Origin: Candidatus Poribacteria bacterium
Lineage (GTDB): Bacteria > Poribacteria > WGA-4E > WGA-3G
Direction of reading: 5' to 3'
DNA: 64,000 nucleotides
Assembly: GCA_963665235.2 (NCBI GenBank)
Contig: CAXXLX010000001.1
Location: 1,312,001-1,376,000, forward strand
Notes under the pieces: model-generated
What the model saw: only the letters and a program-made list of their open reading frames with translations
The model's database searches: none
What the model was told of the DNA's origin: nothing
Translations under genes and position numbers: made by a program
Shown here: positions 1,242-52,000 of the stretch, piece by piece
How positions within the stretch are numbered: the first letter of the stretch is position 1
Layout: the number at the start of each line of letters is the position of its first letter

Positions 1242-1670
1242 ATGTTACAGAAACACAAACACATCCTCATCTTACTTACGGCATTGGTGTACGTTTATTC
1301 CGTATGCCCGTTTCTCTGTGCGACTTTTGAAGAGAAGGTGTGCCATAACACCTCTCAAGAAATGTTGACAGGGGATGCTGGCTGTTGCCAGAAGGCGACC
1401 ACAGATGCCACGGGTGAGTCTGATACGGCATCAGAAAATGGAAAATTGTGTTGCACTCCCGTGCTAGAACTTATCCTGCTGGATGATACGCCTAATAGGG
1501 TTAATGTTCGTGAATTGAGTGGGCAGTATTTCGTTTTTACTGTTCCGCTTGTTGCAATTCCGTCGATTTCGCAGGCGAGGTTGCCGCGCTTTTTGTCCCT
1601 ACCCGCATTATACACATCTACCCCGAATTGCACGATATCCCGCCGGGGCCCTCCATATACGCACGTATAG
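1242..1670 (+). CDS. Cys-rich exported leader protein with C-terminal RGPP motif (DUF2946/CutF/CruR-like)
   Basis: Hydrophobic N-terminus, CxxxC, two CC pairs, ends ISRRGPPYTHV. It is the first gene of a metal-related operon. Confidence 0.6.
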   Translation: MLQKHKHILILLTALVYVYSVCPFLCATFEEKVCHNTSQEMLTGDAGCCQKATTDATGESDTASENGKLCCTPVLELILLDDTPNRVNVRELSGQYFVFTVPLVAIPSISQARLPRFLSLPALYTSTPNCTISRRGPPYTHV

Positions 1671-1902: not shown

Positions 1903-2943
1903 ATGCAACCCCAGAATTTCACGTTTTTGAAGTTTTTATCGCGATATTTTACAGTAGCACTCGCTATTAGCTTGCTGCTTTTTATTGAAATAGGTGCAGC
2001 TCAGGAGCAGGGTGCCCACGCCGGCCACAAAGCAGCGAACGGCTCATCTCTCAACGTTGCCCTTCACACCGAACCGAACACTGTTCAGGTTGGAACTCCG
2101 ACATCTCTGACGTTTCACCTTACCGATGCAAAAGGTGAACCGTTCACGGACCTTTTGGTACATCACGAGCGCGTTCTGCATGTGCTTATTGTTAGCGAGA
2201 ATTTGCAAATCATCGGCCATGTTCATCCCGAAGATTTTGAATCGCGGGATATGCTGGCAGAGTTAGCGGGGCACTATACGGTGCACTTTACGTTTCCGAC
2301 TGCAGGCCGCTATATTGTGGCAATAGATGTGATGACAGCGGAGGCAGAATTTTCCAAATATCTGTATGTAGATGTGAAAGGCACGCCGAAAATGACCGAG
2401 ATGCTCCGCGATTTTCGCCGAGCAAAAGCCATTCGCGGCTATACCGATGAAGGTGGTGACCGATATACTAAAGCGGTATCCGTAACGGAAACAGAGAGCA
2501 CGGCCGAAGCGGTGTATCATGTGAAAATGGAAACCCCTAAACAGATTCGGGCAGGTGAGATGGTGACGATTGGCTACCATTTCTCGCGCAATGGAAAACC
2601 GCTTACCGACCTCGTTCCGTTTTTGGATGCCCCGATGCATTTCGCAATTGTGAGCACCCGTTTAGATGGTGTGATACATACACACGGCAACGTGCCATCT
2701 AATAAACATGACGCGCATGGGACGAAGAAACAGGCGCAGCATGCGGGACATACAGGGCACGAGGTGCACAAAACACCGAAAGGGAAACATGAGCATCAGA
2801 GTGCTACGCCAGAGAAATTTGGTCCCACGGTGAATCTTATGACGATGTTTCCAAAGGCTGGCGTTTATCAAATTTTCGGGCAACTCAAACACACCAATCA
2901 GATTCTGTGGCTCAGTTTCATGGTTGAAGTTGTTAGCAAGTAG
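1903..2943 (+). CDS. Exported His-rich heavy-metal-binding protein with two Ig/YtkA-like domains
   Basis: Signal peptide; motifs HHERVLHVL, GHVHP, APMHFA, IHTHG; His-rich loop; repeated FPxAGxY. Confidence 0.7.
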   Translation: MQPQNFTFLKFLSRYFTVALAISLLLFIEIGAAQEQGAHAGHKAANGSSLNVALHTEPNTVQVGTPTSLTFHLTDAKGEPFTDLLVHHERVLHVLIVSENLQIIGHVHPEDFESRDMLAELAGHYTVHFTFPTAGRYIVAIDVMTAEAEFSKYLYVDVKGTPKMTEMLRDFRRAKAIRGYTDEGGDRYTKAVSVTETESTAEAVYHVKMETPKQIRAGEMVTIGYHFSRNGKPLTDLVPFLDAPMHFAIVSTRLDGVIHTHGNVPSNKHDAHGTKKQAQHAGHTGHEVHKTPKGKHEHQSATPEKFGPTVNLMTMFPKAGVYQIFGQLKHTNQILWLSFMVEVVSK

Positions 2944-2978: not shown

Positions 2979-3956
2979 ATGTTTTCTCAAATTTACCGTC
3001 CACTCTGGATATTTATCCTTTTGGCAGGTGTTTTGCTAATGGTAAGTATGCCGATGCAAGGCGATGCCCATGAGAAGGAGTGGCCAGGGCAGAAACTTAA
3101 GGCTTTTTTTCCGATGGCAAAGAAATTTGTTCAGCGAAGTGTCGTGCTTACGTCGGCTAAAATTGCTGCTATTGAGAAGGAGCTCGGCAGTAAACTCCGG
3201 AAGGAGGACCATAAACCGGTGTTTTATATTTCGCTCAATGCGAAGAATAGGCCAATAGGCTTGGTGCTGTTTGCTGATACACAGGGGCCGCGCGGCACAA
3301 TTGATGGCGCAGTCGGCTTGGACATGAAGGGGAAGATTGTGAAAGTGGCGGTCTATGAACACAAGGAGTCGGATGCAATTGCATCAGAGAAATTTTTGAA
3401 GCAGTTCATCGGCATGGATATAGACAGCACTTTCAAGGTGGGCAAGGATGTTAAAGCGGTTAAGGGGCAAGAGGCAGCATCAGAAGCGGTTGCACTGCTT
3501 CCGAAAAAGACGTTAATTATGAGCTATGCCCTCTTCCTCAAACGGAAACCGAAACCGAAGGCGGAAAAGCAACCGCAGACCGATGCCCAAAAGGATGAGA
3601 TGCCTGAAGTGGAAGACCTGAAGGAGCTTATGATGTTGATGGTGGATGCATATCTCAACATCGTTGACTACTTTGAGACTGGCAAGGACAAAGCGAAAGC
3701 GGTCGCTGCGGCGAAACAGCTCGTCACGTACGCGAAAGGCATCGGAGCGTTTGAACCCCCGAAAAATGCTGAACAGGCTAAGGAATATGCCGCGCTTCAC
3801 AAAAAGTTCGGCAAAACTCTCACGGAATTCGCTAAAAAGCTTGAGCAGGACGGTATTTCTGATGAGACGCGCAAACAGTGGAAGGCTATCGTCGCGTTAG
3901 TGAATCAGGCACACCGCCAGTTTAGCGAAGAAGAGGTTGACCTTGAGGCATATTAA
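2979..3956 (+). CDS. Exported FMN-bind-like domain fused to a cytochrome b562-like four-helix bundle
   Basis: Signal peptide. GxIxKVxVxEHKE..FLKQFxG is an FMN_bind/RnfG-like pattern. The C-domain DLKELM...PPK...NQAHRQF resembles b562. Confidence 0.65.
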   Translation: MFSQIYRPLWIFILLAGVLLMVSMPMQGDAHEKEWPGQKLKAFFPMAKKFVQRSVVLTSAKIAAIEKELGSKLRKEDHKPVFYISLNAKNRPIGLVLFADTQGPRGTIDGAVGLDMKGKIVKVAVYEHKESDAIASEKFLKQFIGMDIDSTFKVGKDVKAVKGQEAASEAVALLPKKTLIMSYALFLKRKPKPKAEKQPQTDAQKDEMPEVEDLKELMMLMVDAYLNIVDYFETGKDKAKAVAAAKQLVTYAKGIGAFEPPKNAEQAKEYAALHKKFGKTLTEFAKKLEQDGISDETRKQWKAIVALVNQAHRQFSEEEVDLEAY

Positions 3957-3969
3957 CCGTTGGAAACGC

Positions 3970-4000
3970 GTAGGGCGGGTTTTGACATCCGCCCTGCACG
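3970..4000. repeat. GTAG-REP-like intergenic hairpin
   Basis: gtagggcgg-gttttgacat-ccgccctgc. Confidence 0.6.
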
Positions 4001-4025
4001 CTTTTACTCAAAAAAGGAGTTTATC

Positions 4026-5561
4026 ATGCGCAAAATTTTGCTTTTTTACTTAGTCGCGTTCTTTTTAGCAGTCATGACAGAATATTCACCGAGTTTTGCT
4101 TTGCCCGCGTTCTATAAAATGTTTCGCACCAAATACAAGTGGGCAAGTGGATGCAATGTCTGCCACTCTTCAAAGACAGGTGGGGATTCTCCTAATTTAT
4201 ACGGCAGGGCATTCTTACACAACGGTATGAATTTCACAACGTTCACAAAGATTGAAAAGACAGATTCGGATAAAGATGGATTTAGCAATATTGCGGAGAT
4301 TCTCGCGCGTTCCTATCCGGGGGATGCTGCGAGTACACCGGAGAACGTCAAACCTACAGCCGATGCCGCCGGTGCGGACAATGGGTTGACTTCCGATTCG
4401 GAGGACATCTTCAGTTTCGATGACGTAGATGGAACAGAGGGGACAGAGGGTTCTGGATTTCTTGGAGATGCGTTCGGTAACCTTGTTTTTGGTGGGGCAT
4501 TGGATATCCGCCGCATTACGCGTGGACAGGATTTGATGCCTGATAGAGAAGACAATTGGGATACAGGGACCACGCTTATCCACGTCGCTGAATTTGTAGT
4601 GACAACGAGTGTCGGTGACCATATCAGTCTGTTGGGAGAACAGCTGCTGACAACCTCGCCCTTGGGGACGCAGGTTGCTGATGACCATGGGTTTGTATAT
4701 GCAATTTTGAGTAGCTTGCCAGTTTTACCAGCGGGTGCGTCTCTGAAAATTGGGCGATTTCGCCACGGTTTTGGTATTGACACAAAGTCGGATGCAGCCA
4801 CAAATCCGCTGTATAATTTGGTCCGGAAAAACATCGGTTTCATTTCCGACCGTGGCTTTCAACTCAACGGTTACGTTGGGCCCGTCTCCTACACCGTATC
4901 GCTTGCGGATGGGCCGGACTCACTTCGCACGGTTACGTCGGGAACTGTAGCATCCGGTATTCGCATCGGTCCGCACGGTAGTGGGGGTGGTGTTTTGAAA
5001 CCGCTCAGAAATAACAGTCCGCCTCTATTTCTCCATGTTAACGGTGACCTTCCGCTTTTGGGGAAGCGGATTTGGCTCGGTGTATCCTATTTTGATGGTA
5101 ACAGCTATCCGTTTAATCCACTGACAGGGGATGTTAATCCGTCGACGTTGGTTTACAAACGACGTGTCGGTTTGTCGACACATTTCAGGTTATGGCGGTT
5201 CGCGTTTGCTGGCGAGTGGGTTCGTGGAAGAGATACGCATCTTTTGAAATATCTACAAATTCCGCTCACAACAGAGGAACGTGGCGCGTCTGTGGAGGGT
5301 TATTACATGCATGCAGAAATACCGCTGTCGGAGTCCTTGGATTTTCGGTTAAAATATGATGTGTGGAATCCAAATACGGACCTGTATAAACGTTATGCTT
5401 TTCGCCGGGAATCTGAAGATGCGGTTTGGTCGACGCTCGGTGGTGCATTGACGTGGCATTTCACAGAGGGGGGGTTGGCTCGGCTTGCTTACCAGATAAA
5501 TAACGTTGAAAAACCGACGCGCAGTGGAGGCATAGTTCCGCAGCTTTTGGTAGAATTTTGA
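4026..5561 (+). CDS. Monoheme cytochrome c fused to an outer-membrane beta-barrel (Cyc2-like architecture)
   Basis: AAGGAG RBS before ATG 4026. Signal peptide ends SFA, followed by LPAF..CNVCH..NLYGRAF. DSDKDGFSNxxE motif, amphipathic beta strands, terminal Phe. Confidence 0.75.
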   Translation: MRKILLFYLVAFFLAVMTEYSPSFALPAFYKMFRTKYKWASGCNVCHSSKTGGDSPNLYGRAFLHNGMNFTTFTKIEKTDSDKDGFSNIAEILARSYPGDAASTPENVKPTADAAGADNGLTSDSEDIFSFDDVDGTEGTEGSGFLGDAFGNLVFGGALDIRRITRGQDLMPDREDNWDTGTTLIHVAEFVVTTSVGDHISLLGEQLLTTSPLGTQVADDHGFVYAILSSLPVLPAGASLKIGRFRHGFGIDTKSDAATNPLYNLVRKNIGFISDRGFQLNGYVGPVSYTVSLADGPDSLRTVTSGTVASGIRIGPHGSGGGVLKPLRNNSPPLFLHVNGDLPLLGKRIWLGVSYFDGNSYPFNPLTGDVNPSTLVYKRRVGLSTHFRLWRFAFAGEWVRGRDTHLLKYLQIPLTTEERGASVEGYYMHAEIPLSESLDFRLKYDVWNPNTDLYKRYAFRRESEDAVWSTLGGALTWHFTEGGLARLAYQINNVEKPTRSGGIVPQLLVEF

Positions 5562-5586
5562 AATAGCTACGGGAAACTATAGGAAT

Positions 5587-5649
5587 CATCGGCAAGAAGG
5601 GTTCTGGTGATTATGAAACAACTTTATCATCAGAAATCTCTTGCCGATG
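5587..5649. terminator. Long hairpin between convergent genes (gcaaga...tcttgc family)
   Basis: Outer arms catcggcaaga / tcttgccgatg; inner arms ttctggtgat / atcatcagaa. Confidence 0.6.
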
Positions 5650-5660
5650 GCTGACAACTC

Positions 5661-6665
5661 TTACTGCTGGGCTTGCTCCGCCTCAGTCTTGGCATGGATA
5701 GCGATAAGCACAAAACAGGTGGATTGCAAGTTGGCAGTAGGCTTTTCGAGTTCTATCGGGGTATTGCTGACGAAACTGCCATCTTTTCTCCGGGCTTTTG
5801 TGAGGTAATCGATAGCGACACGACGCGTATTGAGCGTGAGCAGGTCACTTCGAGCAGCAAGTGCCATAATAACACTGGCAGTCACTTCAGGGTCACTTGG
5901 TAAACCTTTGTATACAGGGAATCCACCGTCGGCATTCCGGTGCTGTTTTAACCAAAAAATATCTCTATCAATATCGTAAAATATTGATAATCCTTGAAGT
6001 ACCCAGGCGGTCACAAAAATATTGGAGGGTCCGCCGCGGCGGAGTGACCACCCCGTATCATTTTCGTCATTATCATTGCGGGTGCGGCGTGCTGGTTGGC
6101 CTAACCACTGCGCCCCCCTGGAAGCAGGTTCGAATCTCTGATTGAACCCGAGTTTTTTAAAGCCGGCTAAAACAGCGGCGGTATAGAGGATATTTCCGGG
6201 GCTGCCGCTCTGCTTTCCCCAGCTGCCGTTTGCATTTTGTGCATCCTTCATCCACTGAAGTCCCTTGAGTCGTATTTTGGGGTCGGTTTCGGCAGCTGCT
6301 AGGGCGATAAGGGAGAAGATGGTGTGGGCGGTGTTGTTGTTCCAGCTGCCATCTTGAGTCTGCGTCGACTTCAAATAGGTGACTCCGGCTCGGATAATAC
6401 GGGACCCGGTGCCCCATCCTGCGTCAATTAATGCCCAAATAGCAAATGCGGTGACTTCGGCATCACTTTTCCCTCCGGGTACAAGGGGCCATCCGCCATC
6501 TCGGTTTTGGTGTTTGATAATGTAGGTTTTCGCGCCTTCTATCGTTTGGTAGAGTGCCGGGAGCTCTGATGCATCATCGGCAAAACTTCGGGGCACGTTG
6601 AGACAGAGAAGGGACAACAGCATCTGGCAACATAATAGTATAGATATAGGTTTGTAATATCTCAT
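5661..6665 (-). CDS. Exported prenyltransferase/squalene-cyclase (QW) repeat protein
   Basis: Signal peptide MRYYK..SFA; repeats QNRDGGW, QTQDGSW, QNANGSW, RNADGGF. No DxDD motif. Confidence 0.75.
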   Translation of the reverse strand: MRYYKPISILLCCQMLLSLLCLNVPRSFADDASELPALYQTIEGAKTYIIKHQNRDGGWPLVPGGKSDAEVTAFAIWALIDAGWGTGSRIIRAGVTYLKSTQTQDGSWNNNTAHTIFSLIALAAAETDPKIRLKGLQWMKDAQNANGSWGKQSGSPGNILYTAAVLAGFKKLGFNQRFEPASRGAQWLGQPARRTRNDNDENDTGWSLRRGGPSNIFVTAWVLQGLSIFYDIDRDIFWLKQHRNADGGFPVYKGLPSDPEVTASVIMALAARSDLLTLNTRRVAIDYLTKARRKDGSFVSNTPIELEKPTANLQSTCFVLIAIHAKTEAEQAQQ

Positions 6666-6772
6666 TTTTTCACCTGCTAACGGTTGATAATCTAATTTTT
6701 GTCGGTTTTCTTGCCGAATGCGTGAACGGAAACCTTCGGCGTGTGTTTTCAACCCGACGGACAAAATAGAAA

Positions 6773-7897
6773 CTACAACTGTGGTTCAATCACGACTTTG
6801 TAAACGCCTTCCTCGCCGAGCATATCAATACCGGTTTCCAATTGATTTAAGGGTAGGTGGTGCGTTATCAATTCATGCAGCGGGGCCCGTGTCCGCTGGA
6901 GAAAATCCAACGCTGTCTGAAATTGGATTTGCGGATATGCCCACACCCCACAGACATCCAGGTCTTTATTACAAATTTGATGCGGTCTCACCCGGGTTTC
7001 GCCAGAATCGGTGTAGTGTCCAACCTCAATAACCTTGCCTCCGCGGCGGACTACGTCTAACGCTTCGGAGAAGACAATGGGTAAGCCAGCACATTCAAGT
7101 GCGATGTCCACGCCGACACCATCTGTGAGCTCCTGAATCTGTTCGAGCCGCTTTTCCGATGTTGTCTGACCAACATTGATAACTACATCTGCTCCCATCC
7201 GTTTCGCCATGTCTAAACGGCTATCGACGAGGTCGGTGGCGATGATGGTACCCGCGCCGCTATCCCTTAAGACAGCGATGACGAGTAGGCCTATCGGGCC
7301 ACATCCGAGCACGGCAACGCGGCTTCCGATACTGTAGCCGTCACCGACCTGCGGAAGTCCAGGGGCACAAGCGCGTTCAACAGCACGTGTCGCTACCGCT
7401 ACCGGCTCCGTCAACACAGCAATCTCTTCGGGAATGCTCTCCGGTATTTTGTAGACCCAGGAGTTTCCGTGGATATAGGTATACTCGGCGAATTCACCGG
7501 TGAGATAGGGTGGCGTTTCGCTGTTGCTGAACCCGTAAATGGTGCGTCCCGAACACAACGTTGGACGGCCCGGTACATGTAAGCAGTAATAGCATCTGCC
7601 GCAGTTTTTTGAACCCGGCACTACCGTCACACGGTCCCCGGTTTTGATGGGCCCGCCCATCACATTCATAACCTGATTCGCACGGGTGCCGAGCTCCGCG
7701 ACTGTTCCGACAACTTCATGTCCAGGGATGACAGGAAATTTTAGTGCGGTGTGCCCGAGATACATGTGCTTATCGCTTCCACAGATGCCGACTTTGTCAA
7801 CTTGGAGTAGAAGGGAATCTTCTGTGGGTCTCGGTTTCTCAAATTCGCGGAGCTGTATCCGGCCCGGTTGGAGCATGACTGCTGCTTGAACTTGCAT
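6773..7897 (-). CDS. Zinc-dependent alcohol dehydrogenase (MDR family)
   Basis: ICGSD, GHE, CGRCYYC..C, GCGPIG. Confidence 0.9.
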   Translation of the reverse strand: MQVQAAVMLQPGRIQLREFEKPRPTEDSLLLQVDKVGICGSDKHMYLGHTALKFPVIPGHEVVGTVAELGTRANQVMNVMGGPIKTGDRVTVVPGSKNCGRCYYCLHVPGRPTLCSGRTIYGFSNSETPPYLTGEFAEYTYIHGNSWVYKIPESIPEEIAVLTEPVAVATRAVERACAPGLPQVGDGYSIGSRVAVLGCGPIGLLVIAVLRDSGAGTIIATDLVDSRLDMAKRMGADVVINVGQTTSEKRLEQIQELTDGVGVDIALECAGLPIVFSEALDVVRRGGKVIEVGHYTDSGETRVRPHQICNKDLDVCGVWAYPQIQFQTALDFLQRTRAPLHELITHHLPLNQLETGIDMLGEEGVYKVVIEPQL

Positions 7898-7933
7898 AGT
7901 TGGAATTCCTTGTCCTGTTTTTTTTAGTTTATT

Positions 7934-9091
7934 TCATCGTGACCAGAGGGGAATCAATACTTTTGTTAGCTGCGCTAAACTTTCCAAATTGTGTGCGGGC
8001 AGAAAATAGTCTAGATATGGCAGTGCTGTGCGGATACCCCGACAAATCGGTTGATAATTGTCGCTGCCGAGCAGCGGGTTCAGCCATATTAAGCGGTAGG
8101 CGTGCCGATGCAACATCTCCATAGACCGGCGGAGCACATCTACATCGCCACGGTCCCAACCGTCGCTAATGAGAATGACTACCGTACGATACGCTGAGAA
8201 AGATGGAGCGAACTGTCGATAGAATTCCAGTAGACTTTCGCCAATCTTTGTGCCTCCCGACCAGTCGGGGACGACGTTTGCGACTTCGTTCAAGCCTTCT
8301 GTCAATCCTTTTCGTCGAAGCAAACCTGTAATATTTGTCATGTGTGTGCTGAAGACTGCGACTTCTACCTCTCTCAATGCCTGTTGCATTCCGTAGATAA
8401 ATTGGATGAGGAATTTGGCGTAGCAATCCATGGACCCGCTGACATCACAGAGGAGAAGGATTTTTGTTTTTTTGATTTTGCGTTGTTTGCGCATTAATTC
8501 AAGCGGTTCACCGCCGTGTGTGAGACTTTTTCGCCAGCTTCTTCGAAAATCGATAGCTCTGCCTTTTTTGCTAACAACTTTTCGTCTACTGAGTCTTGTT
8601 GCCAATACCTGCGCCAATTTTGCGATAATGTCCCGCGCCTTGTCCATATCTTCTGCTGTGAACTCGCTGAAATCTTTGCGGGTTAGGAGCTCTTCAGCAC
8701 TGTAGGCGATAGGGTCGTTTTCGTGTCCATTCTCCGCAGCTTCATCCTCAAAATCCACCCATTGGTCAAGTATATCCTCTCCGTCGGCTGCGTCGTAAAG
8801 GTCCTGGAGGCTGGAGGGTTCAGGCGTTTCTCGTTCTGTATCAACGGTTTGGAATTCAGGACGCGGGTATCGCCAAAAGAGGTTGAAGGCGATGTCAAAC
8901 GTCTCCCGGTCTGCTTGATTAGCGATGAGGTTTGTGCGCGCCGTATGGTAAAACGCCTCTCGCTCGCTGATGTCAATTAGTTCAACGCTCTTGCACCAAC
9001 TCAGCTGATTGGTGGTGCTGACGTTAATGCCGTTGTGTCGGAGCAATCGGCAGAAATCAGTGATTTGTTGGAGAAGGGTCTGATCAGTCAT
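7934..9091 (-). CDS. VWA-domain protein, CoxE family
   Basis: DVSGSM MIDAS motif, WSGGTKIG, ISDGWD, WLNPL. Confidence 0.9.
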   Translation of the reverse strand: MTDQTLLQQITDFCRLLRHNGINVSTTNQLSWCKSVELIDISEREAFYHTARTNLIANQADRETFDIAFNLFWRYPRPEFQTVDTERETPEPSSLQDLYDAADGEDILDQWVDFEDEAAENGHENDPIAYSAEELLTRKDFSEFTAEDMDKARDIIAKLAQVLATRLSRRKVVSKKGRAIDFRRSWRKSLTHGGEPLELMRKQRKIKKTKILLLCDVSGSMDCYAKFLIQFIYGMQQALREVEVAVFSTHMTNITGLLRRKGLTEGLNEVANVVPDWSGGTKIGESLLEFYRQFAPSFSAYRTVVILISDGWDRGDVDVLRRSMEMLHRHAYRLIWLNPLLGSDNYQPICRGIRTALPYLDYFLPAHNLESLAQLTKVLIPLWSR

Positions 9092-9434: not shown

Positions 9435-10346
9435 TTAAAACTGGACTGAGCAGGCGTTTTCCTGTTCTTCTAAGTAAAGGATGAAGGCATCCAGTTCTTT
9501 GGAGAAAGTGCTAAACAACTCGCCGATTCGCTTTGCATTTTTCTCCGTTCTTTGGTAAACCAATTCCTGTCCGTATATATTATTGAAAACGTGGCGGAAC
9601 TCCAGCAATTCCTGCAAATATGCGAAAGTCTCTTGAGAAATTACAGGGTGTCGTTCAGGCCGCGCTTCGGACATCTGCGTTACTAGTTCTTTATGCCATC
9701 TACTTCCATCGGGCATCCGTAAATCAACATCGAGAGCGATTCGTTTAAAAATGTTCTCCACCCCCCTATAGTAGTCCACAAGATTTTTGGCGATGGTCGT
9801 TTCTATCTCTTCTCTATATTCAATCGGGGCAGTTTCAATTTTTTCTAATCTCTCTTGTATTTTTTTTAACGTTGCTTCTATCTTGTCGCGCTCGTCAAAA
9901 ATTCGCTGGATAAGTTCGCTTCTGTCCACTTCGTAGATTACCCCTTTTTCGATGGGAATTAGTTGGCTCTGGATTCTCTCGCGAAACAGCCCTTTGCAAT
10001 CTTTAAAATCGACTAAATCAATCTTAAACAGTCCGCTGATGTCGGATGCTACTGATGATGCCCGGAAATACTTGTCGTTGGGGATGCCCCAGACAGCGAT
10101 GTCAATATCGGACCATTTTGAGAACGATTCCCGTTCGGCAAGTGAGCCGAAGACAGCGACCTGGGTCGCGCCGAAGTCGCTGTAGAGGATGGTTGCAATT
10201 CGATGTGCGGTCTGCCATGCGCGTTGCAGCAAGGCTTCATCGACCTTCCTGTTCTGAAAGTGCTCATCGAGTCGCTGGCGATATTCCGCTAATTCTTCTG
10301 GCGATAAATCTTTGGCTGTGCGATGGGTGTCCGTAGATTGATGCAT
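9435..10346 (-). CDS. Fused minimal nucleotidyltransferase-HEPN (MntA-HepT-like) protein, copy 1
   Basis: FGSLA..SDIDIAV; C-domain ENIFKRIA..WHKEL..FRHVFNNIY. Confidence 0.85.
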   Translation of the reverse strand: MHQSTDTHRTAKDLSPEELAEYRQRLDEHFQNRKVDEALLQRAWQTAHRIATILYSDFGATQVAVFGSLAERESFSKWSDIDIAVWGIPNDKYFRASSVASDISGLFKIDLVDFKDCKGLFRERIQSQLIPIEKGVIYEVDRSELIQRIFDERDKIEATLKKIQERLEKIETAPIEYREEIETTIAKNLVDYYRGVENIFKRIALDVDLRMPDGSRWHKELVTQMSEARPERHPVISQETFAYLQELLEFRHVFNNIYGQELVYQRTEKNAKRIGELFSTFSKELDAFILYLEEQENACSVQF

Positions 10347-10362
10347 AGGATTGTCTCATGAA

Positions 10363-11304
10363 TTACTCGTCAGGATTTTTTAGCCACACTATGAACACGT
10401 CGAGTTCGGCAGATAAACTGTCAAACATATTGCAGACCTCTTGTGCGTTTTCAACTATTTTTTCAAGTTCCAATTCAAATACGTATATGTTTCTAAAACG
10501 GTGGCGGAATTTTAAAGGACGCGTTAAAGCGGCGGCTGTTTTTTCGGAAATCACAGATGGACGCACTGGGCGCGACATTGACATCTGCTCTAATAAATCT
10601 GTGTGCCAATTTTTTCCCTGAGATTCGTCCTGGTCAATTTCTTGAGCAATCCGTTTGAAAATGTTCTCTAATCCGGTATAGAAAACAGAGAGGCGTATAG
10701 CAATCAATTCTTTAAGCTCTTCCCGAGCTTCAGCGGATGCCGTTTTCATTCTTTCGAGGCGCGTTTTGATTTCTTCAACAGTTCTCGCTATTTTTTTTCG
10801 TTCATCAGCGATTCGATTGATGAGTTCTTGCTTGTTCATTTTGTCAGTTTCAGCGCGGATTTTTTGACATTCAGAGATTAATCCACTGTAGCCTGTTTCT
10901 CCCTGTTGAATTCGGATAGCTTGACTTTGAATCCGTTCGCGAAATCGGCCTTTCGCGCTGTGAAAGTTGATGAGCTCTATTTTGAACTCTGGACTGAAAT
11001 TTCTGGTTTCCCATAACGCGTCAAGATATGTGTCATCAGAAAGTCCCCAGACAGCAATATCAATATCTGACTCTTTTGAAAACCACCTCTGTCCGGCAAG
11101 CGAGCCGAAGACAGCGACCTGTGTCGCGCTAAAGTCGCTATAGAGCATGGTTGCAATCCGATGTGCGGTCTGCCATGCGCGTTGCAGCAATGCTTCATCC
11201 ACTTTCCGGTTCTGAAAGTGTTGGTCAAGTCGCTGGCGATATTCTGCCAATTCTTCTGGCGATAAATCTTTCGCTGTGCGATGGGTGTCCGTAGATTGAT
11301 GCAT
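10363..11304 (-). CDS. Fused MNT-HEPN protein, copy 2
   Basis: FGSLA..SDIDIAV; ENIFKRIA..WHTDLL..FRHRFRNIY. The N-terminus is nearly identical to copy 1. Confidence 0.85.
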   Translation of the reverse strand: MHQSTDTHRTAKDLSPEELAEYRQRLDQHFQNRKVDEALLQRAWQTAHRIATMLYSDFSATQVAVFGSLAGQRWFSKESDIDIAVWGLSDDTYLDALWETRNFSPEFKIELINFHSAKGRFRERIQSQAIRIQQGETGYSGLISECQKIRAETDKMNKQELINRIADERKKIARTVEEIKTRLERMKTASAEAREELKELIAIRLSVFYTGLENIFKRIAQEIDQDESQGKNWHTDLLEQMSMSRPVRPSVISEKTAAALTRPLKFRHRFRNIYVFELELEKIVENAQEVCNMFDSLSAELDVFIVWLKNPDE

Positions 11305-11335
11305 CAAAATCTCCATTTAACTGCCATCCAGACTA

Positions 11336-41435: not shown

Positions 41436-42524
41436 ATGACAGAAATGGCACAGCAATTAAAAAATGATCTTCTTCTTCGCGCCGCGAAATACCGACCTGT
41501 GGAACGCGTACCTGTATGGATGATGCGACAGGCGGGCCGCTCGGACCCGCTCTATCGGCAAATTCGTGAAACGTGTAACCTTCCGTTGGAACGGCTTTTC
41601 CGAACCTGTCCCGCCCCGATGTCGGATACTGATGTGGAATGGGCAGTAAAAATTTCACTTCTGCCCAAACGTATCGGTGTAGACGGTATTATTGTATATA
41701 AAGATATTCTTACACCGCTCGCCCCTATGGGGGCACACTTCCGATTTTTACCCGGTCCCATTCTGAATCCCCCGATACGGACGCAAGCGCAAGTAGACGC
41801 ATTATGCCCACTAGATGAACCCCCTGTACAATTAGAGTACACAGGAGCGGTTATTCACAAGCTTCGTGAAACATTGGCTGGCGACCTACCGCTTATCGGT
41901 TTCGCGGGCGCGCCTTTAACGCTCGCTTTTTTTCTCATAGCGGGGGAAAGTCCTATGAAAAGGGGGCGCGAAATATCCGATAAAGCAACGCCTATTTTGG
42001 AAATGATGACTGAGGCACCGGCCCTTCTGCATCAGCTATTAGATAAGTTGACCGACATGACAATTAACTATCTGAATTACCAGCTCAGCAAGGGGGTGCA
42101 GATTGTGCAGCTATTTGAGTCCATCGCTGATGTGCTATCGCGGCAGATGTATGAAAATTTTGCCCTGCCGTACCACCAACGCATCTTTGCAGAACTCCCA
42201 GAGGCGGCTCCCAGCATTCTCTTCGCGAAGGAGTGCCCTTATGTGGATTTAATGGCCCGCAGCGGTGCAAGTGTCCTCAGTATCGGCAAATGTGTCAATC
42301 TCCAAAAAGCCAAAACGGAAATAGGTAAAGGTATCGCATTTCAAGGAAATGTGGATAACGATATCCTTCGAGATGGCACATGTGACGATATAACGGAGGC
42401 TGTCCGCACGTGTCTGAAGCAGGGGGAAGGAATAGGGCACATTCTCAATCTCAGCCACGGTCTTCACAGAGATACACCTTTTGAAAACGTTAAACATTTC
42501 GTCCACATCGCAAAGACGCTATAG
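41436..42524 (+). CDS. hemE: Uroporphyrinogen decarboxylase
   Basis: PVWMMRQAGR, LIGFAGAP, NLSHG. Confidence 0.95.
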   Translation: MTEMAQQLKNDLLLRAAKYRPVERVPVWMMRQAGRSDPLYRQIRETCNLPLERLFRTCPAPMSDTDVEWAVKISLLPKRIGVDGIIVYKDILTPLAPMGAHFRFLPGPILNPPIRTQAQVDALCPLDEPPVQLEYTGAVIHKLRETLAGDLPLIGFAGAPLTLAFFLIAGESPMKRGREISDKATPILEMMTEAPALLHQLLDKLTDMTINYLNYQLSKGVQIVQLFESIADVLSRQMYENFALPYHQRIFAELPEAAPSILFAKECPYVDLMARSGASVLSIGKCVNLQKAKTEIGKGIAFQGNVDNDILRDGTCDDITEAVRTCLKQGEGIGHILNLSHGLHRDTPFENVKHFVHIAKTL

Positions 42525-44958: not shown

Positions 44959-46383
44959 ATGGAATCTGAAAAAAAACGTGCCATCGTTATCGGCGGTGGG
45001 ATTACAGGATTAACTGCCGGGTACCGTCTCATGCGGGAAGCGAAAAAACGGAATATCCCCCTTAAACTCACGCTCCTTGAAGCGAGCAACCGAGTCGGCG
45101 GCACTATTCAGACCGAACACAGAGATGGATTCGTCATCGAACACGGGCCCGATGCATTCATCTCTACAAAACCCTGGGCGAAAGCCTTATGTGATGAACT
45201 CGGTATCGCGGACAAATTAATAGGCACAAATCCGAACGTGCGCCAAAGTTTTGTCTGCCGTAACGGAAAACTGCTACCGGTACCCAAAGGCTTTTACATG
45301 ATGGCACCCGGCGCATTTTTACCCTTTTTAAAAAGCCCTATTTTCAGTTGGCGTGGAAAACTCCGTATATCGCTTGACCTCTTTATCTCACGTCGACAGG
45401 AGATAGATGATGAATCGGTGGCTGATTTTGTGAGACGTAGACTCGGCACCGAGGCGTTCGAACGGATAGCACAACCGATGATAGGCGGAATCTATACCTC
45501 AGACGCAGAAAATTTAAGTCTAAACGCAACGTTTCCGAGGTTTCTGGAAATGGAACAGGAACACGGAAGTATCATCAAAGCACTCCTAGCACGAAAACGC
45601 AGTGCCACTCAGACAAACCAAGACACTAGCGGGCCCCGCTACAGCCTCTTCCTATCGTTTGCCTCCGGAATGCAGACGCTCGTTGACGCACTCGCGGAAC
45701 ACCTCACTGAACAGATTCGGCTCGGTACCCGCGTGGACACTATCCAACGCGGAGAAAGCGGCATAGGATGGCGTGTCGCCGTGGCGGATGGTGAAATATT
45801 GGAGGCGGAACTGCTCTGCATTGCGCTTCCCGCACCGCAGGCAAGTAGAATCCTGAAAAGTACGTCTCCACTGCTTGCTGAAAAACTGAACGCAATTCCA
45901 TATTCCTCCTCTACAACGGTTAATCTAGCATTCCACCGCGAAGACATCGCACACGCGCTCAACGGGATGGGATTCGTGGTGCCCATAACAGAACAAATTG
46001 ACCTTATCGGCTGTTCGTTTAGCAGCGTCAAATTTGAAAACCGCGCCCCTGCCCAATACGTTTTGCTACGGGCTTTTGTAGGAGAAAAACAGGACCTTAC
46101 CAGCAGTAGACCGGACCAAGAAACGTTGGCAGCATCGGTATTACAGGATGTGAGCAAACTCCTCGGAATTAAAAAACAACCGCTGTTCTCTATCGTTAGT
46201 CAACATTCGCAGGCTATGGCACAGTATTTGGTGGGACATCAAAAGATTGTAACGGAGATTGAAACCCTAGCAAAAGATTTGCATGGGATTGCTTTAGCAG
46301 GGAATGCATACCACGGTATCGGCATTCCGGATTGTGTTCACAGTGGTGAACAGGCGGCGGAGGCTCTTCTTAATAGTAGCTAA
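44959..46383 (+). CDS. hemY: Protoporphyrinogen/coproporphyrinogen oxidase (HemY)
   Basis: GGGITGL, EHGPDAF, SSVKFENRAP, GIGIPDC. Confidence 0.93.
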   Translation: MESEKKRAIVIGGGITGLTAGYRLMREAKKRNIPLKLTLLEASNRVGGTIQTEHRDGFVIEHGPDAFISTKPWAKALCDELGIADKLIGTNPNVRQSFVCRNGKLLPVPKGFYMMAPGAFLPFLKSPIFSWRGKLRISLDLFISRRQEIDDESVADFVRRRLGTEAFERIAQPMIGGIYTSDAENLSLNATFPRFLEMEQEHGSIIKALLARKRSATQTNQDTSGPRYSLFLSFASGMQTLVDALAEHLTEQIRLGTRVDTIQRGESGIGWRVAVADGEILEAELLCIALPAPQASRILKSTSPLLAEKLNAIPYSSSTTVNLAFHREDIAHALNGMGFVVPITEQIDLIGCSFSSVKFENRAPAQYVLLRAFVGEKQDLTSSRPDQETLAASVLQDVSKLLGIKKQPLFSIVSQHSQAMAQYLVGHQKIVTEIETLAKDLHGIALAGNAYHGIGIPDCVHSGEQAAEALLNSS

Positions 46384-48668: not shown

Positions 48669-49012
48669 AAAAGATATGGGCAAATTTTACAAAATACATC
48701 GGATTGATGATATATAATCACCCCAATCTGTGATGCAATTGTCTAAACGGATTTTCATAGGTCAAATATAGAGCTTCGGTGCCCAATTTTTACCTGCTTT
48801 GACCTTAAGATTACGGAATAATTAACTACGGAGATGTTGACTCCATCCCAGGGTCGATTTTACGTATACGGAAAATTTAGCACTGGGTAGTAGGATGGTT
48901 AGATGGGCAAACACCTACCTCCGGTTGTTTTTGTTGTGTTTCCCGCTTGCCCATCTAAAAACTTCAGTATTTAGTCTTGTGTTTGCACAGACTTAACGAG
49001 GAGGATGAGTTA

Positions 49013-52000
49013 ATGAAAAAACGAACACTTGTTTGTTTTTTGATTTTTACATTGTGTATTTTTTACAGTTCGATTCCGAACACCGTGTTCGCGCAAGATG
49101 GTAAATCTCTCGCCCAACAGGTGTTTGACAAGCACAGCGAGACGCTTTTACGCGACGACGTTAAAGTCCTTTTGCCAGAGCTGTTCGACGGTCTTAAGGG
49201 TTCAAACGTAGATGATCTCCCGGGGCTCATAAGTCTGGCTATCATTTTACTGAACGCTAATCAAGACGCGGCCGTAAAAGCGCAGGCCGCCAATAACGGT
49301 GTCACGCTAACAGATGATCACATTAAGCTTCTTAAAGACTCAGCTGTCCAAGCTGTCCTCAATGATGAAGCTACGAAGAGTTTACTTGGACTTAAAGGGG
49401 ACGGACTTGGGACAGCAATTGACGAACTTTCTAGGTTGATTAATGAGGCTGGCACTGACCCAGGTGATGGAACCGACCCAGGTGATGGAACCGACCCAGG
49501 TGATGGAACCGACCCAGGCGATGGAACTGACCCAGGTGATGGAACTGACCCAGGTGATGGAACTGACCCAGGTGATGGAACTGACCCAGGTGATGGAACC
49601 GACCCAGGTGATGGAACCGACCCAGGTGATGGAACCGACCCAGGCGATGGAACTGACCCAGGCGATGGAACTGACCCAGGTGATGGAACTGACCCAGGCG
49701 ATGGAACTGACCCAGGCGATGGAACCGACCCAGGCACAGATCCAATTATCCCTATTGATTCAGACCTAAATGGCACTTCACGACTTGGTGGACTTTCCCT
49801 TAACAAGGTTCATTTTGAACAGTTTGTGCAAGATATCATTGCTGCAGTGGACCCTTCAGGGCCTTCGGGTGCTCTAAGTTCCCTTATAAAACCGGATGAG
49901 ATAGATAGTCTGATAGATGGTATTCTACGTCTACCTCAGATTAAAGGATTTCTTCCAGCGGATCAGATTTCCATGATTAGTTGGCTTTTAAAGAATGAAT
50001 TTTCTATTTTCCAGGATGAACCCGCAGGATTAGATTCTGAGAACTTTGGAAATGCTATTATGCCTAGCCTTTCTGAGCTCCTCTATTCTGATGTTCCTAC
50101 CAAAAGCAAGTACCTGACAAGCGATAATCTGAATCTCTATGTGCGTGTTCCATCAGCACTGAACGGTGGTAAAGTTGAATTTAGACTCAATGGTCAGCAA
50201 GTAGCAGAGGCTACAAGAATTACCCCGGTTGAATTCCAAAAGGATACTATTCCTTATACCTTCCGGTTGGAGGAGACTCTCGCTGCTACCAACCTGCCTG
50301 CATTACCAGCACATGGCAATCAGATTTTCTCGGGTGTTGTGCTTCGCTATTCACAAACCGGATCAGATGGAGATTATATCGCTGTTGATATGATGCCGAT
50401 GCATGAGGGTAAAGGGGTTGTATGGAAAACTGAGATAGGCATTTTACCAAAAGGTAGTACCTATTACTATTTTGAAGTCACCCTCGCCGAGCCGGTTTAC
50501 CTTGAGGTTGTCAATCGTGAAGCACTTGCTGAGGCTGTATCTTCAGCAAACGCTACGCACACCCAAGAGCTAACAAGAACATATAAGATTGAGAATTGGG
50601 CAATGCCCGATCCGCATAACCTCCAATTGGTTGATCGGGGTATTTTTAAGGCACTCTTCACCGTCGATATTTTAGGAATTTTAGCTCTGCCCGAAGTCGG
50701 TAACGCCATTCGGAGTGGAGATCTAAGCGGGATTCGCCAAGAAACTTGGAATAGACTTCAGGGTTTATTCCTGCGCAATGCCGAAAAATTGACCAGCGAG
50801 CTTGAAGGGATGCCTATGGAAGAGGATGGAAAGCAGGTATATACTGGTGGTCTGTTTGATCCGTTGCTGGCTTCTGTCTTCAGCGTGCCAAACGTTGATG
50901 TAGAAACGCAGTCCCTTTGGTATGCTGATATCGGTTCAATTGCGGACAATTCAAGGTCTAATCCAATCCACACGCTGGAAGCTGTTGTACGCGATGCAAA
51001 TGGGGATGCAGTTGATGTAATTGCTGCTGCCTTCAGTAAGGATACCACTGCACCGGAAGCTACAATTGAGATTGCGCCTAGCGAAAATACGGCTGGTTAT
51101 ACGAACAACGATCGCATTTATGTTGCTACAGTTCCCTCAAGAGATGCTGCCGCGCTGCTAAGCATTAGAAGTCAAGTGCAAGCTGATGAGGTGGGACTGG
51201 ATAAAGGTTCTCTCATTTATCAAATTGCGCGGACAGATGAGGCTGGAAATCCTGTAAGCACTTGGATGCCTTTGGATGTTCAGGGTACTATGTTAGCCTC
51301 TGAGCTTTGGGATGTCGCTAGAGAGCGATTGACCTTAATTCCAGATGAAATTAAAGACCCAGCTACAGGTGCCTCCATTAAACCCAAAGAATTGTCTTTA
51401 GATGCACTTTTGGCACTGCTAAGCTCCCCGCTTGTGCAGCCTACATTGATAGGAGCCCTCAAGAACCTTGGTCTAACGAATGCTGATGAACAGCACGCCG
51501 CAGTGTTAACAGGGCTGCTAGGTGCAATCGCCGGGGATATTAACCTTGTACCGCTAACCTGGGATGCATCTCAGGAGATGACGATGGCTATTCAAGGTGA
51601 GAACATGCCGCTCCTTACCGGGAACTATCGTATTCGTGCCCTCGGTATCGATTCGCTCCTCAATATCAGTTCTCATGACCAGGGACAGCATCTCAGAATC
51701 GTCGCGCCTGAAGAAAATTATGATCGGGCAAGCGTCATCCTCGCAAGTTTAGGCGATGTCAACGATAATGGCAAGGCTGATGATTACGAAACGGGGACTA
51801 TCTACAAAAATACCACCGACAATGTCATGTTAACTGTTAAGTTCAGCGAGCGTTCAGTGCATCCTGTTACTCTCCAAGTTCAATACATGGATGCAGATGG
51901 CATCACGTGGAATAACATCGGCGACCTGCTTTCCCTTGCCGAAGGGGTGGACGAAGTTGCCCCAATTTCTTGGAACGTCACCGATTTTGATGCATTAGTC

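Follow-up and report, generated by a model that had tools for sequence, protein, structure and literature searches.

Does the gene at positions 4026..5561 (+) of a 64,000-nucleotide (nt) stretch of Candidatus Poribacteria DNA (contig CAXXLX010000001.1, positions 1,312,001 to 1,376,000; hereafter the window) code for an iron oxidase of the Cyc2 type, or for a different protein that joins a cytochrome to a porin? An earlier note, made from the sequence alone, read the product as a Cyc2-like cytochrome-porin with an extra Ca-binding-like motif and an acidic linker, and allowed for a divergent or convergent class. The architecture it described is right, the ancestry it implied is wrong and the implied substrate is probably wrong. 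The 511-residue product combines a heme/EF-loop module with a porin-like β-barrel, and we consider it very probable that this architecture is correct and that the gene arose when two partners in an older system were joined, because these partners are separate neighbouring genes elsewhere and because the tree of barrel domains places fused forms apart.

Heme/EF-loop module and porin-like barrel

The open reading frame (ORF) is called at 3960..5561 (+), a single long frame opening at TTG. ATG 4026 is favoured as the start since a Shine-Dalgarno-like AGGAG (4015..4019, +), read from the sequence, stands 6 nt before it and the Poribacteria homologues likewise begin MRK. Translation from there yields 511 amino acids and a stop codon. 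By inspection, residues 1-25 (4026..4100, +) resemble a signal peptide, in which MRK is followed by the 14-residue hydrophobic core ILLFYLVAFFLAVM and by TEYSPSFA, with a predicted cleavage between SFA and the LP of LPAF. The matching position in homologues ends in (Y/F)A before LPAF in the 36-row alignment A1. The 80 matches of a protein search include 77 that are 71-90% identical to the query, and those with a name are annotated 'hypothetical protein' of Candidatus Poribacteria bacterium.

The signal-peptide-like segment precedes a small domain of four predicted helices (residues 26-105; 4101..4340, +), supported by its matches to NF041762 and Temptin_C and by AlphaFold2 (AF2). It carries CNVCH (residues 43-47; 4152..4166, +), presumed from the conservation of CXXCH to be a covalent heme c site with His47 as proximal ligand, and DSDKDGFSNIAE (residues 80-91; 4263..4298, +), a 12-residue DxDxDGxxNxxE loop of the EF-hand or thrombospondin-3 (TSP3) type that presumably binds Ca2+ in a structural role. 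Homologues match Pfam models of this type (TSP3_bac in P0201, E 8.7e-7; EF-hand_1 in P0084, E 6.2e-9). C43 and C46 are the only cysteines of the whole protein, which has a single CXXCH. The CNVCH picked out by the earlier note is conserved: all 68 full-length Poribacteria homologues (P0002-P0069) have CXXCH, and so do the fused relatives P0083, P0095 and P0103. The sequence PNLYGRAF, also quoted there, stands at residues 56-63.

An HMMER search against 1.84 billion representatives retrieved 875 proteins at E<=1e-3, and most of the 150 listed among them cover only query residues ~1-120. The module is N-terminal in many unrelated secreted proteins of 106 to 1127 amino acids, whose C-terminal parts have nothing in common (Ig-like, multiheme cytochromes, carboxypeptidase-regulatory and others), and it occurs also as 4-7 tandem copies. 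Over 137 segments from 123 proteins, C43, C46, H47, D80, D82, D84 and E91 are 100% conserved, followed by P98 (99%), Y37 and G60 (96%), P105 (92%), N88 (91%), G85 (89%), and N57 and Y59 (86%). No conserved Met or second His was found across these segments. The query fits the resulting pattern C-x-x-C-H ... N-x-Y-G ... D-x-D-x-D-G-x-x-N-x-x-E ... P-G-D at every position. CXXCH and the Ca-like loop are one module of ~85 amino acids. The TSP3-like Ca motif singled out by the earlier note is thus present and conserved, but it is not an extra, because it makes up half of the same module as CXXCH. Three metagenomic proteins, P0084, P0094 and P0105, contain little besides the module, in 7, 5 and 4 tandem copies respectively, each copy with its own CXXCH and DxDxDG; they would represent a novel multiheme protein type of the 'beads-on-a-string' kind.

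The query aligns with Pfam PF24784 Temptin_C (E 6.9e-4) and, over residues 39-109, with positions 47-125 of NCBIfam NF041762, the 'GEGP motif-containing diheme protein' (E 1.3e-15). With 57.5 bits the latter match stays far under the cut-off of 300, and it takes in only 79 of the 359 positions of the model. Within the aligned part lie the CXXCH, the N-x-Y-G stretch and the DxDxDG loop; a full member of NF041762 has two heme sites and scores over the cut-off, whereas the query has one CXXCH and continues as a barrel. No publication on the GEGP-motif family was found in open-access PMC and bioRxiv. AF2 of residues 24-112 on the 84-row alignment A2 gives four helices with high confidence (predicted local distance difference test, pLDDT, 90.1; predicted template-modelling score 0.81), and Foldseek finds no PDB relative of this model apart from a lone meaningless match (E 4.6).

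The lack of a structural match to solved cytochromes and of a conserved distal ligand, together with the faint detection of the module by Pfam cytochrome models (Cytochrome_CBB3, E 0.14), would suit a quite different role of CXXCH, namely a Cys2-His site for a metal such as Cu(I) in a metal-binding porin devoid of electron transfer. The copper-linked gene context described below points the same way, and CXXC is also a classic Cu(I) motif. However, heme c attachment calls for a His right behind the second Cys, and that His is 100% conserved. The matching region is also classed by the NCBIfam curators within a diheme protein, and P0155, P0202, P0138 and P0221 join the module to bona fide multiheme cytochromes. 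We regard such a metal site as the most improbable of the readings considered here.

An acidic linker with low predicted order (residues 106-148; 4341..4469, +) connects the module to the barrel. The acidic character of the stretch of about 45 residues noticed earlier stands, with 12 D/E versus 1 K/R in residues 101-148; its FSFDD portion, however, aligns in A1 with the motif ...FDFDxPxL... at the N-terminus of stand-alone barrels, and so is not purely a linker. Neither the Ca-like motif nor this segment is an addition to a Cyc2 scaffold, as the earlier note had it, because the module and the barrel to which they belong are pre-existing parts, encoded by separate genes in other phyla.

AF2 and Foldseek identify residues 149-511 (4470..5561, +, stop codon included) as a porin-like β-barrel. 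The full-length AF2 model built on A1 has a mean pLDDT of 67.9, with residues 150-511 mostly at 70-94 and the linker at about 28-44. DSSP assigns 16 long strands and one short hairpin in a low-confidence loop, and the chain ends in Phe (...QLLVEF), so that the fusion of an N-terminal monoheme-type CXXCH domain to a C-terminal barrel ending in Phe proposed in the earlier note is borne out. Where porins have L3, strand 5 leads into a long loop that bears helices (250-253 and 265-269, lying between the strands 239-246 and 274-284). By analogy with classical porins it would be the constriction loop. The end of strand 5 and this loop form the most conserved stretch of the barrel (residues 243-273, GRFRHGFGIDTKSDAATNPLY...; 4752..4844, +; delimited by A1 columns and DSSP), where invariant A1 columns are densest. 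The invariant residues are G156, D160, R162, H186, E189, L203, E205, L207, L208, H221, G222, G243, R244, R246, G250, D252, D256, G271, D275, G282, G296, S354, G358, E397, G401, R486 and Q506, and N260, P261, K268 and I273 are nearly so.

Foldseek searches of the PDB with the barrel give OprP as the top match (2o4v, E 6.8e-13), OprO at ranks 6 and 10 (4rjx and 4rjw), and OmpU, Omp32, PorB and further 16-strand trimeric porins. Matches to 16-strand porins have E-values of 6.8e-13 to 1e-10 and template-modelling scores by target of 0.54-0.70, while the 18-strand AlgE and OccK score lower (0.37-0.45). The likeness to OprP, OprO, OmpU, Omp32 and PorB resides in the 16 strands and in the long helix-bearing third loop. 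It does not extend to sequence for OprP and OprO, from which the query differs also by its N-terminal heme module and by a conserved set mixing His, Asp, Glu and Arg, whereas the title of the OprP entry 2o4v names an Arg ladder. None of the Pfam porin models, including Porin_O_P (PF07396), matches the query at E<=1; among PDB chains the protein search yields a chance match (E 1.3) and the A1 profile 0 matches. The atlas neighbours of the barrel are unnamed clusters of 400-429 amino acids, with one lead (score 0.90) to a cluster that has PF07396 in 20% of its members, and the relative in locus L068 matches BBP2 (PF07642, E 7.3e-7). A further search with the A1 profile returned 86 matches, all unnamed or 'hypothetical' and, beyond the known set, only fragments. 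Judged by its sequence, the barrel is a separate, unnamed family.

Comparison with Cyc2

Keffer et al. (2021; PMC8406198) define Cyc2 by a signal peptide, a single CXXCH, a 16-strand OprO/OprP-like barrel and a length >=365 amino acids. The query has all of these, the signal peptide by inspection: a single N-terminal CXXCH, a 16-strand OprO/OprP-like porin and 511 residues. It also shares with Cyc2 and Cyt572 a short monoheme domain and a size in the range 400-570 amino acids, and for all of them one electron could plausibly be exchanged with a dissolved metal ion at the outer membrane. No distal heme ligand is evident in either; in AlphaFold3 models of Cyc2, Cyt572 and Cyc2PV-1, the His of CXXCH is the sole predicted axial ligand according to a 2026 review (PMC13741234). 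These features, together with OprP and OprO standing among the top fold matches, speak for a true though divergent Cyc2/Cyt572, one that would take electrons from dissolved Fe(II) at the outer membrane and pass them to the respiratory chain.

The motifs around the heme site argue otherwise. In PMC8406198, AxPxFAR[Q/K][T/Y] ends 5 residues before CXXCH and PxL lies 4 residues after it, and sequences without PxFAR[Q/K][T/Y] were taken out of the Cyc2 tree. The corresponding pattern P.FAR[QK][TY] matches 0 of 81 family sequences (the query and P0002-P0081). The query reads ALPAFYKMFRTKYKWASG-CNVCH, where only F-10, K-7 and Y-6 are in the Cyc2 register and ALPAF is 4 residues, one helical turn, too far upstream. 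The Pro of its PxL is the 9th residue after His47, with 8 intervening residues versus 4 in the Cyc2 definition. Of 69 sequences, 64 have PNP here and 3 have PNL, while the motif is missing from 2. The echo of the Cyc2 pattern heard by the earlier note comes down to these three residues in register. On motif criteria, as opposed to a direct comparison with Cyc2 proteins, the query is outside the published sequence definition. Remote homology of the heme region to Cyc2 is possible because of the shared F-10/Y-6 spacing.

The two proteins are also unlike in their parts and surroundings. The heme domain of the query is a widely reused EF-loop module of hundreds of non-porin proteins, it is tethered by a 45-residue acidic segment, and its barrel family is normally unfused (in 28 of 28 other genomes, see below), in a cluster with RnfG-like and four-transmembrane-segment (4-TM) proteins. 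Genes for cyc1, rusticyanin or terminal oxidases are not among the window genes and Poribacteria flanks scanned, and the relatives of the query neighbour copper genes, not iron-oxidation genes. The iron-oxidase role implied by the earlier note thus finds no support in gene context. A survey table (PMC12482716) enters cyc2 with the Fe-oxidation genes of a vent Poribacteria metagenome-assembled genome (MAG), without naming the gene that is meant; searches of open-access PMC and bioRxiv on Poribacteria and Cyc2 found no description of the present gene. The work on Cyc2 of Manganitrophaceae (PMC9040806) is not about this cluster, and the barrel is unfused in the Ca. Manganitrophaceae loci (L063-L065). 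We consider a divergent Cyc2 quite improbable. The protein looks convergent with Cyc2, and the wording 'divergent or convergent class' of the earlier note was a fair one.

Stand-alone relatives and origin by fusion

A scan of genome contigs gave 80 loci, 52 from Poribacteria and 28 from Bdellovibrionota, Myxococcota, Nitrospirota (including Ca. Manganitrophaceae), Ca. Margulisiibacteria, Omnitrophota and Pseudomonadota. The barrel ORF lacks CXXCH in all 28 non-Poribacteria loci. Within 6 kb of it there is a module-bearing gene in 24 of these loci, a 4-TM gene in 23 and an RnfG/FMN_bind-like gene in 18, the five loci without a 4-TM gene being contigs <6 kb. Locus L063 illustrates the arrangement, with a small cytochrome c (4662-5102), the 4-TM protein (5099-5851), the barrel (5848-6987), an RnfG-like protein (6998-7558) and a module fused to an RnfG-like domain (7542-8402); an RND pump stands on one side of these genes and a YHS-domain P-type ATPase on the other. 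The 4-TM protein has a conserved SHxHLFG / SWW motif and is nearest to Pfam PF27139 Aq_1264_TM by atlas features (score 0.92). Pfam and NCBIfam at permissive E-values assign no family to it or to the other unnamed cluster genes. Searches of open-access PMC and bioRxiv found no publication on Aq_1264_TM, nor on the cluster, the module or the fusion.

The same parts are combined in several ways. P0201 and P0148 are fusions of module, RnfG-like domain and 4-TM domain, and P0201 matches the RnfG-like protein encoded upstream of the query (2979-3956) by BLASTP (E 7e-6). P0086 joins 4-TM and barrel (E 2e-20 to the tail of P0201), as does L065:3639-5630. The nearest relatives of the Poribacteria module are the module+RnfG-like proteins of the cluster, which account for 17 of the top 30 listed relatives and 40 of 122 overall. 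In a midpoint-rooted maximum-likelihood tree of 50 barrel domains, fused forms appear in at least two places. The fused Poribacteria clade has support 100/100, fused P0083 is nested with the stand-alone P0088 and P0086 (97/93 and 98/92), and P0095 and P0103 are long branches of unsure placement. Fusions hinted at by matched query residues in L055, L062-64, L072, L074 and L080 were rejected, module and barrel being on different ORFs there.

Some loci show irregularities of their own. In P0086 and L065:3639-5630 a signal-peptide-like stretch is retained between the α-helical 4-TM part and the barrel, which is topologically odd and may reflect an internal start or later cleavage. The barrel homologue of an Omnitrophota MAG (L076, 2299-3655) is split in two overlapping ORFs, possibly by a frameshift or an assembly error. 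The cluster of a Bdellovibrio MAG (L056, 8647-12305) lies beside ArdC-like and phage-integrase genes and may travel on a mobile element with metal-resistance cargo.

The association of an outer-membrane barrel with a c-type cytochrome for metal redox recalls MtrCAB and PioAB/MtoAB, and in the relatives outside Poribacteria, as in those systems, barrel and cytochrome are on separate genes. Mtr, Pio and Mto have 26-strand barrels with decaheme cytochromes threaded inside (PMC8406198), whereas the query has 16 strands and a single heme module.

Fusion could simply hold two partners close, so that an ordinary substrate-specific porin bears the heme module as a tethered periplasmic carrier or scaffold and its permeant undergoes no redox change. 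The long, acidic tether with low predicted order fits this idea, as do the autonomy of the module, used in many contexts, and its presence in most lineages on a soluble RnfG-like protein instead of the barrel. A predicted complex of the barrel (148-511) and the module (24-112) scores 0.11 against a mark of 0.32 and counts neither way. On the other side, barrel and module-bearing genes are linked in 24 of 28 loci across phyla and fused at two or more places of the tree, which together argue for a direct functional interaction, and the conserved His, Asp, Glu and Arg around the L3-position loop suggest a specific ionic ligand. A passive tether appears unlikely to us.

Partner proteins, metal link and possible mechanism

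Three genes precede the query on the same strand of the window. The first (1242..1670, +) codes for a small Cys-rich protein (CPFLC, CH, CC, CC) with a hydrophobic N-terminus and no family match in Pfam and NCBIfam, the second (1903..2943, +) for a YtkA-like protein with a His-rich C-terminal stretch (Pfam YtkA, E 1e-6, 29.7 bits versus a cut-off of 25.9), and the third (2979..3956, +) for an RnfG/FMN_bind-like periplasmic protein with a Poribacteria-specific helical tail (Pfam FMN_bind, E 2.9e-5). The successive gaps up to 4026-5561 are 232, 35 and 69 nt. Among the 52 Poribacteria loci, the cytochrome-barrel gene and the RnfG-like gene are found in 52, the YtkA-like His-rich gene in 48 and the Cys-rich gene in 47 (26-47% identity). 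A hairpin in the 69-nt gap (AGGGCG ... CGCCCT with a 12-nt loop, window 3972-3995) could be an intra-operon processing or attenuation site. A small Phenol_MetA_deg-like barrel and a VWA gene accompany these genes in some Poribacteria loci.

The RnfG-like protein shares the FMN_bind fold with RnfG and NqrC (Pfam, and the A3 alignment profile with RnfG 7zc6_G, E 1.2e-5). It differs from them by the absence of Rnf/Nqr partners, by an invariant His at the mature N-terminus and by a Glu in place of Thr. The His is the first residue after the predicted signal-peptide cleavage (A before HEKxWPG; H31, invariant in 18 of 18 A3 sequences), which suggests that this N-terminus may be metal-binding. It resembles copper 'histidine brace' sites, a likeness of value only as a lead. 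The Glu aligns with the Thr of RnfG that carries flavin mononucleotide (FMN), and all 18 A3 sequences lack Thr there. ApbE has no match in any scanned locus. On these grounds the protein was rejected as a flavinylated FMN carrier.

The metal link comes from two batches of Pfam searches, of 143 and 135 ORFs, that covered the 28 non-Poribacteria loci except for seven ORFs, small or on the opposite strand, which the first batch omitted. A CsoR/RcnR-type repressor, usually inside or abutting the cluster, is found in 7 loci (L053, 58, 59, 66, 67, 70, 77), a multicopper oxidase in 4 (L062, 67, 77, 79), a YHS/HMBD P-type ATPase in 3 (L063, 66, 77), an HMA protein in 3 (L058, 60, 70), a cupredoxin in 1 (L070) and an RND pump in 6. 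DUF305, in 4 loci (L056, 70, 71, 78), and DUF326, in 2 (L071, 78), are presumably also copper-linked. At least one strict copper marker, RND pumps aside, is present in 11 of 28 loci, or 14 of 28 when DUF305 and DUF326 are counted, and these loci span Bdellovibrionota, Myxococcota, Nitrospirota and Pseudomonadota. Five marker-free loci are contigs <6 kb. Invariant H186, H221, E189, E205, D252, D256, D275, R244 and R246 of the barrel point toward a metal, as do the His-rich tail and Cys clusters of the operon partners in the window. Open-access literature on CsoR, FMN-binding, cytochrome c and outer-membrane copper resistance gave general copper reviews only, and nothing joining a cytochrome-porin to CsoR was found in PMC or bioRxiv.

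We privilege the hypothesis that the tethered heme exchanges an electron with a metal at the barrel, copper being the likeliest, and give this mechanism as a whole a probability of roughly 0.4. The barrel would be a selective channel or a binding site for a metal cation. The module should be periplasmic because it is N-terminal to an even-stranded barrel, following general outer-membrane protein topology, and the disordered acidic tether could bring the mouth of the barrel, or else the co-encoded periplasmic proteins, within its reach. Its heme would trade one electron with the metal of the barrel, and the electron would then pass to the RnfG-like protein with its N-terminal His and to the His-rich YtkA-like protein. 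The working principle would be that proposed for Cyc2 with Fe2+, reached through an independent fusion in a different, multi-phylum gene system. Copper is put forward as the substrate, for instance in Cu(I) oxidation as a detoxification, because the neighbours include CsoR-type repressors, CopA-type ATPases, CopZ-like HMA proteins and multicopper oxidases; iron or manganese would be less likely. The data themselves show the sequence features and how conserved they are, the predicted folds, the linkage of the genes and the fusion, and from these we infer heme and Ca2+ binding, the periplasmic placement of the module, the metal and the direction of the electron.

Several observations weigh against this mechanism. 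The 4-TM gene occurs in 0 of 52 Poribacteria loci and tblastn finds it nowhere in the window, and the Poribacteria system is for this reason rewired relative to other lineages; tblastn for the 'mid' domain in the window gave nothing either. No copper marker is present in 29 flank ORFs from 6 of the 52 Poribacteria loci, nor near the gene among the window genes scanned. The 11-14 of 28 loci with markers are a raw count, and many of the 28 are related Bdellovibrionota. The CsoR/RcnR family, in part according to PMC3320959, senses also Ni, Co and non-metal signals. In the full-length AF2 model, the N-terminal module has a pLDDT of 38-54 and its position is not confident.

Electrons could also flow outward, the heme being the last donor at a porin where Cu(II) or Fe(III) is reduced for uptake or another purpose. 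The 4-TM protein with its conserved His (Aq_1264_TM-like) and two RnfG-like domains would make a plausible chain from inner to outer membrane, and the RnfG fold is used in electron-transfer complexes. Against this, the neighbours belong to efflux and detoxification (CopA-type ATPase, RND, multicopper oxidase, CsoR), not uptake, the RnfG-like protein has Glu at the FMN-bearing Thr with no ApbE in the scanned loci, and the 4-TM gene is missing at the Poribacteria locus. We hold this direction of flow very unlikely. A broader proposal, leaving open whether copper is oxidised or reduced, is that of an undescribed trans-envelope metal-redox system in at least 7 lineages, a 'copper Cyc2' of an origin independent of the iron oxidase, composed of the 16-strand channel, the heme-c/Ca2+ module, the non-flavinylated RnfG-like protein with N-terminal His and the Aq_1264-type 4-TM protein; in this form it is doubtful. 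If it were true, the heme/EF-loop module would add to the small c-type cytochromes a new class whose structure is unsolved.

Other features of the window are recorded for completeness. A secreted prenyltransferase/squalene-cyclase-repeat (α-α toroid) protein is encoded at 5661-6764 (-), convergent with the query gene; it is syntenic in 40 of 52 Poribacteria loci, with ADH (36/52) and CoxE-type VWA (33/52) genes, and a link to the query is not evident. Upstream of the operon, a 214-bp unit repeated 2.1 times (327-778) contains identical 36-nt hairpins (330-365 and 544-579) and adjoins a 32-nt unit repeated 4.2 times (915-1047). ORFs 344-628 and 558-896 are probably spurious products of the 214-bp repeat. 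Tandem paralogues at 9435-10346 and 10363-11316 (-) combine a Polbeta-type nucleotidyltransferase and HepT-like_2 (HEPN-type) in one protein, a gene type found also downstream in Poribacteria loci L001 and L029. The 3257-residue product of 48977-58750 (+) has Ig-like repeats (Big_13, Big_7, HYR, TIG, PKD) and a CopC-domain match (E 6.7e-9). A uroporphyrinogen decarboxylase gene (41436-42524, +) and a flavin amine-oxidase-type gene, possibly for protoporphyrinogen oxidase (44959-46383, +), indicate that heme synthesis genes are present in this stretch of the genome.

Cyc2 serves as a marker gene for microbial iron oxidation, and genes that pair CXXCH with a porin can wrongly be taken for iron oxidases if architecture decides the call. 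The existence of a second fusion of cytochrome and porin, assembled independently, implies that this architecture is a recurring solution. The ~85-residue module, widespread, confidently predicted and without a solved relative, is a good target for structure determination. The fusion serves as a Rosetta stone for a five-gene cluster of all-'hypothetical' proteins that extends from Bdellovibrionota to Nitrospirota, often under a CsoR-type repressor, and it suggests a testable account of copper redox chemistry at the outer membrane of some bacteria. Among cytochrome-porins the Poribacteria protein is a new variation on a known theme, pointing to an undescribed and widely distributed envelope system.

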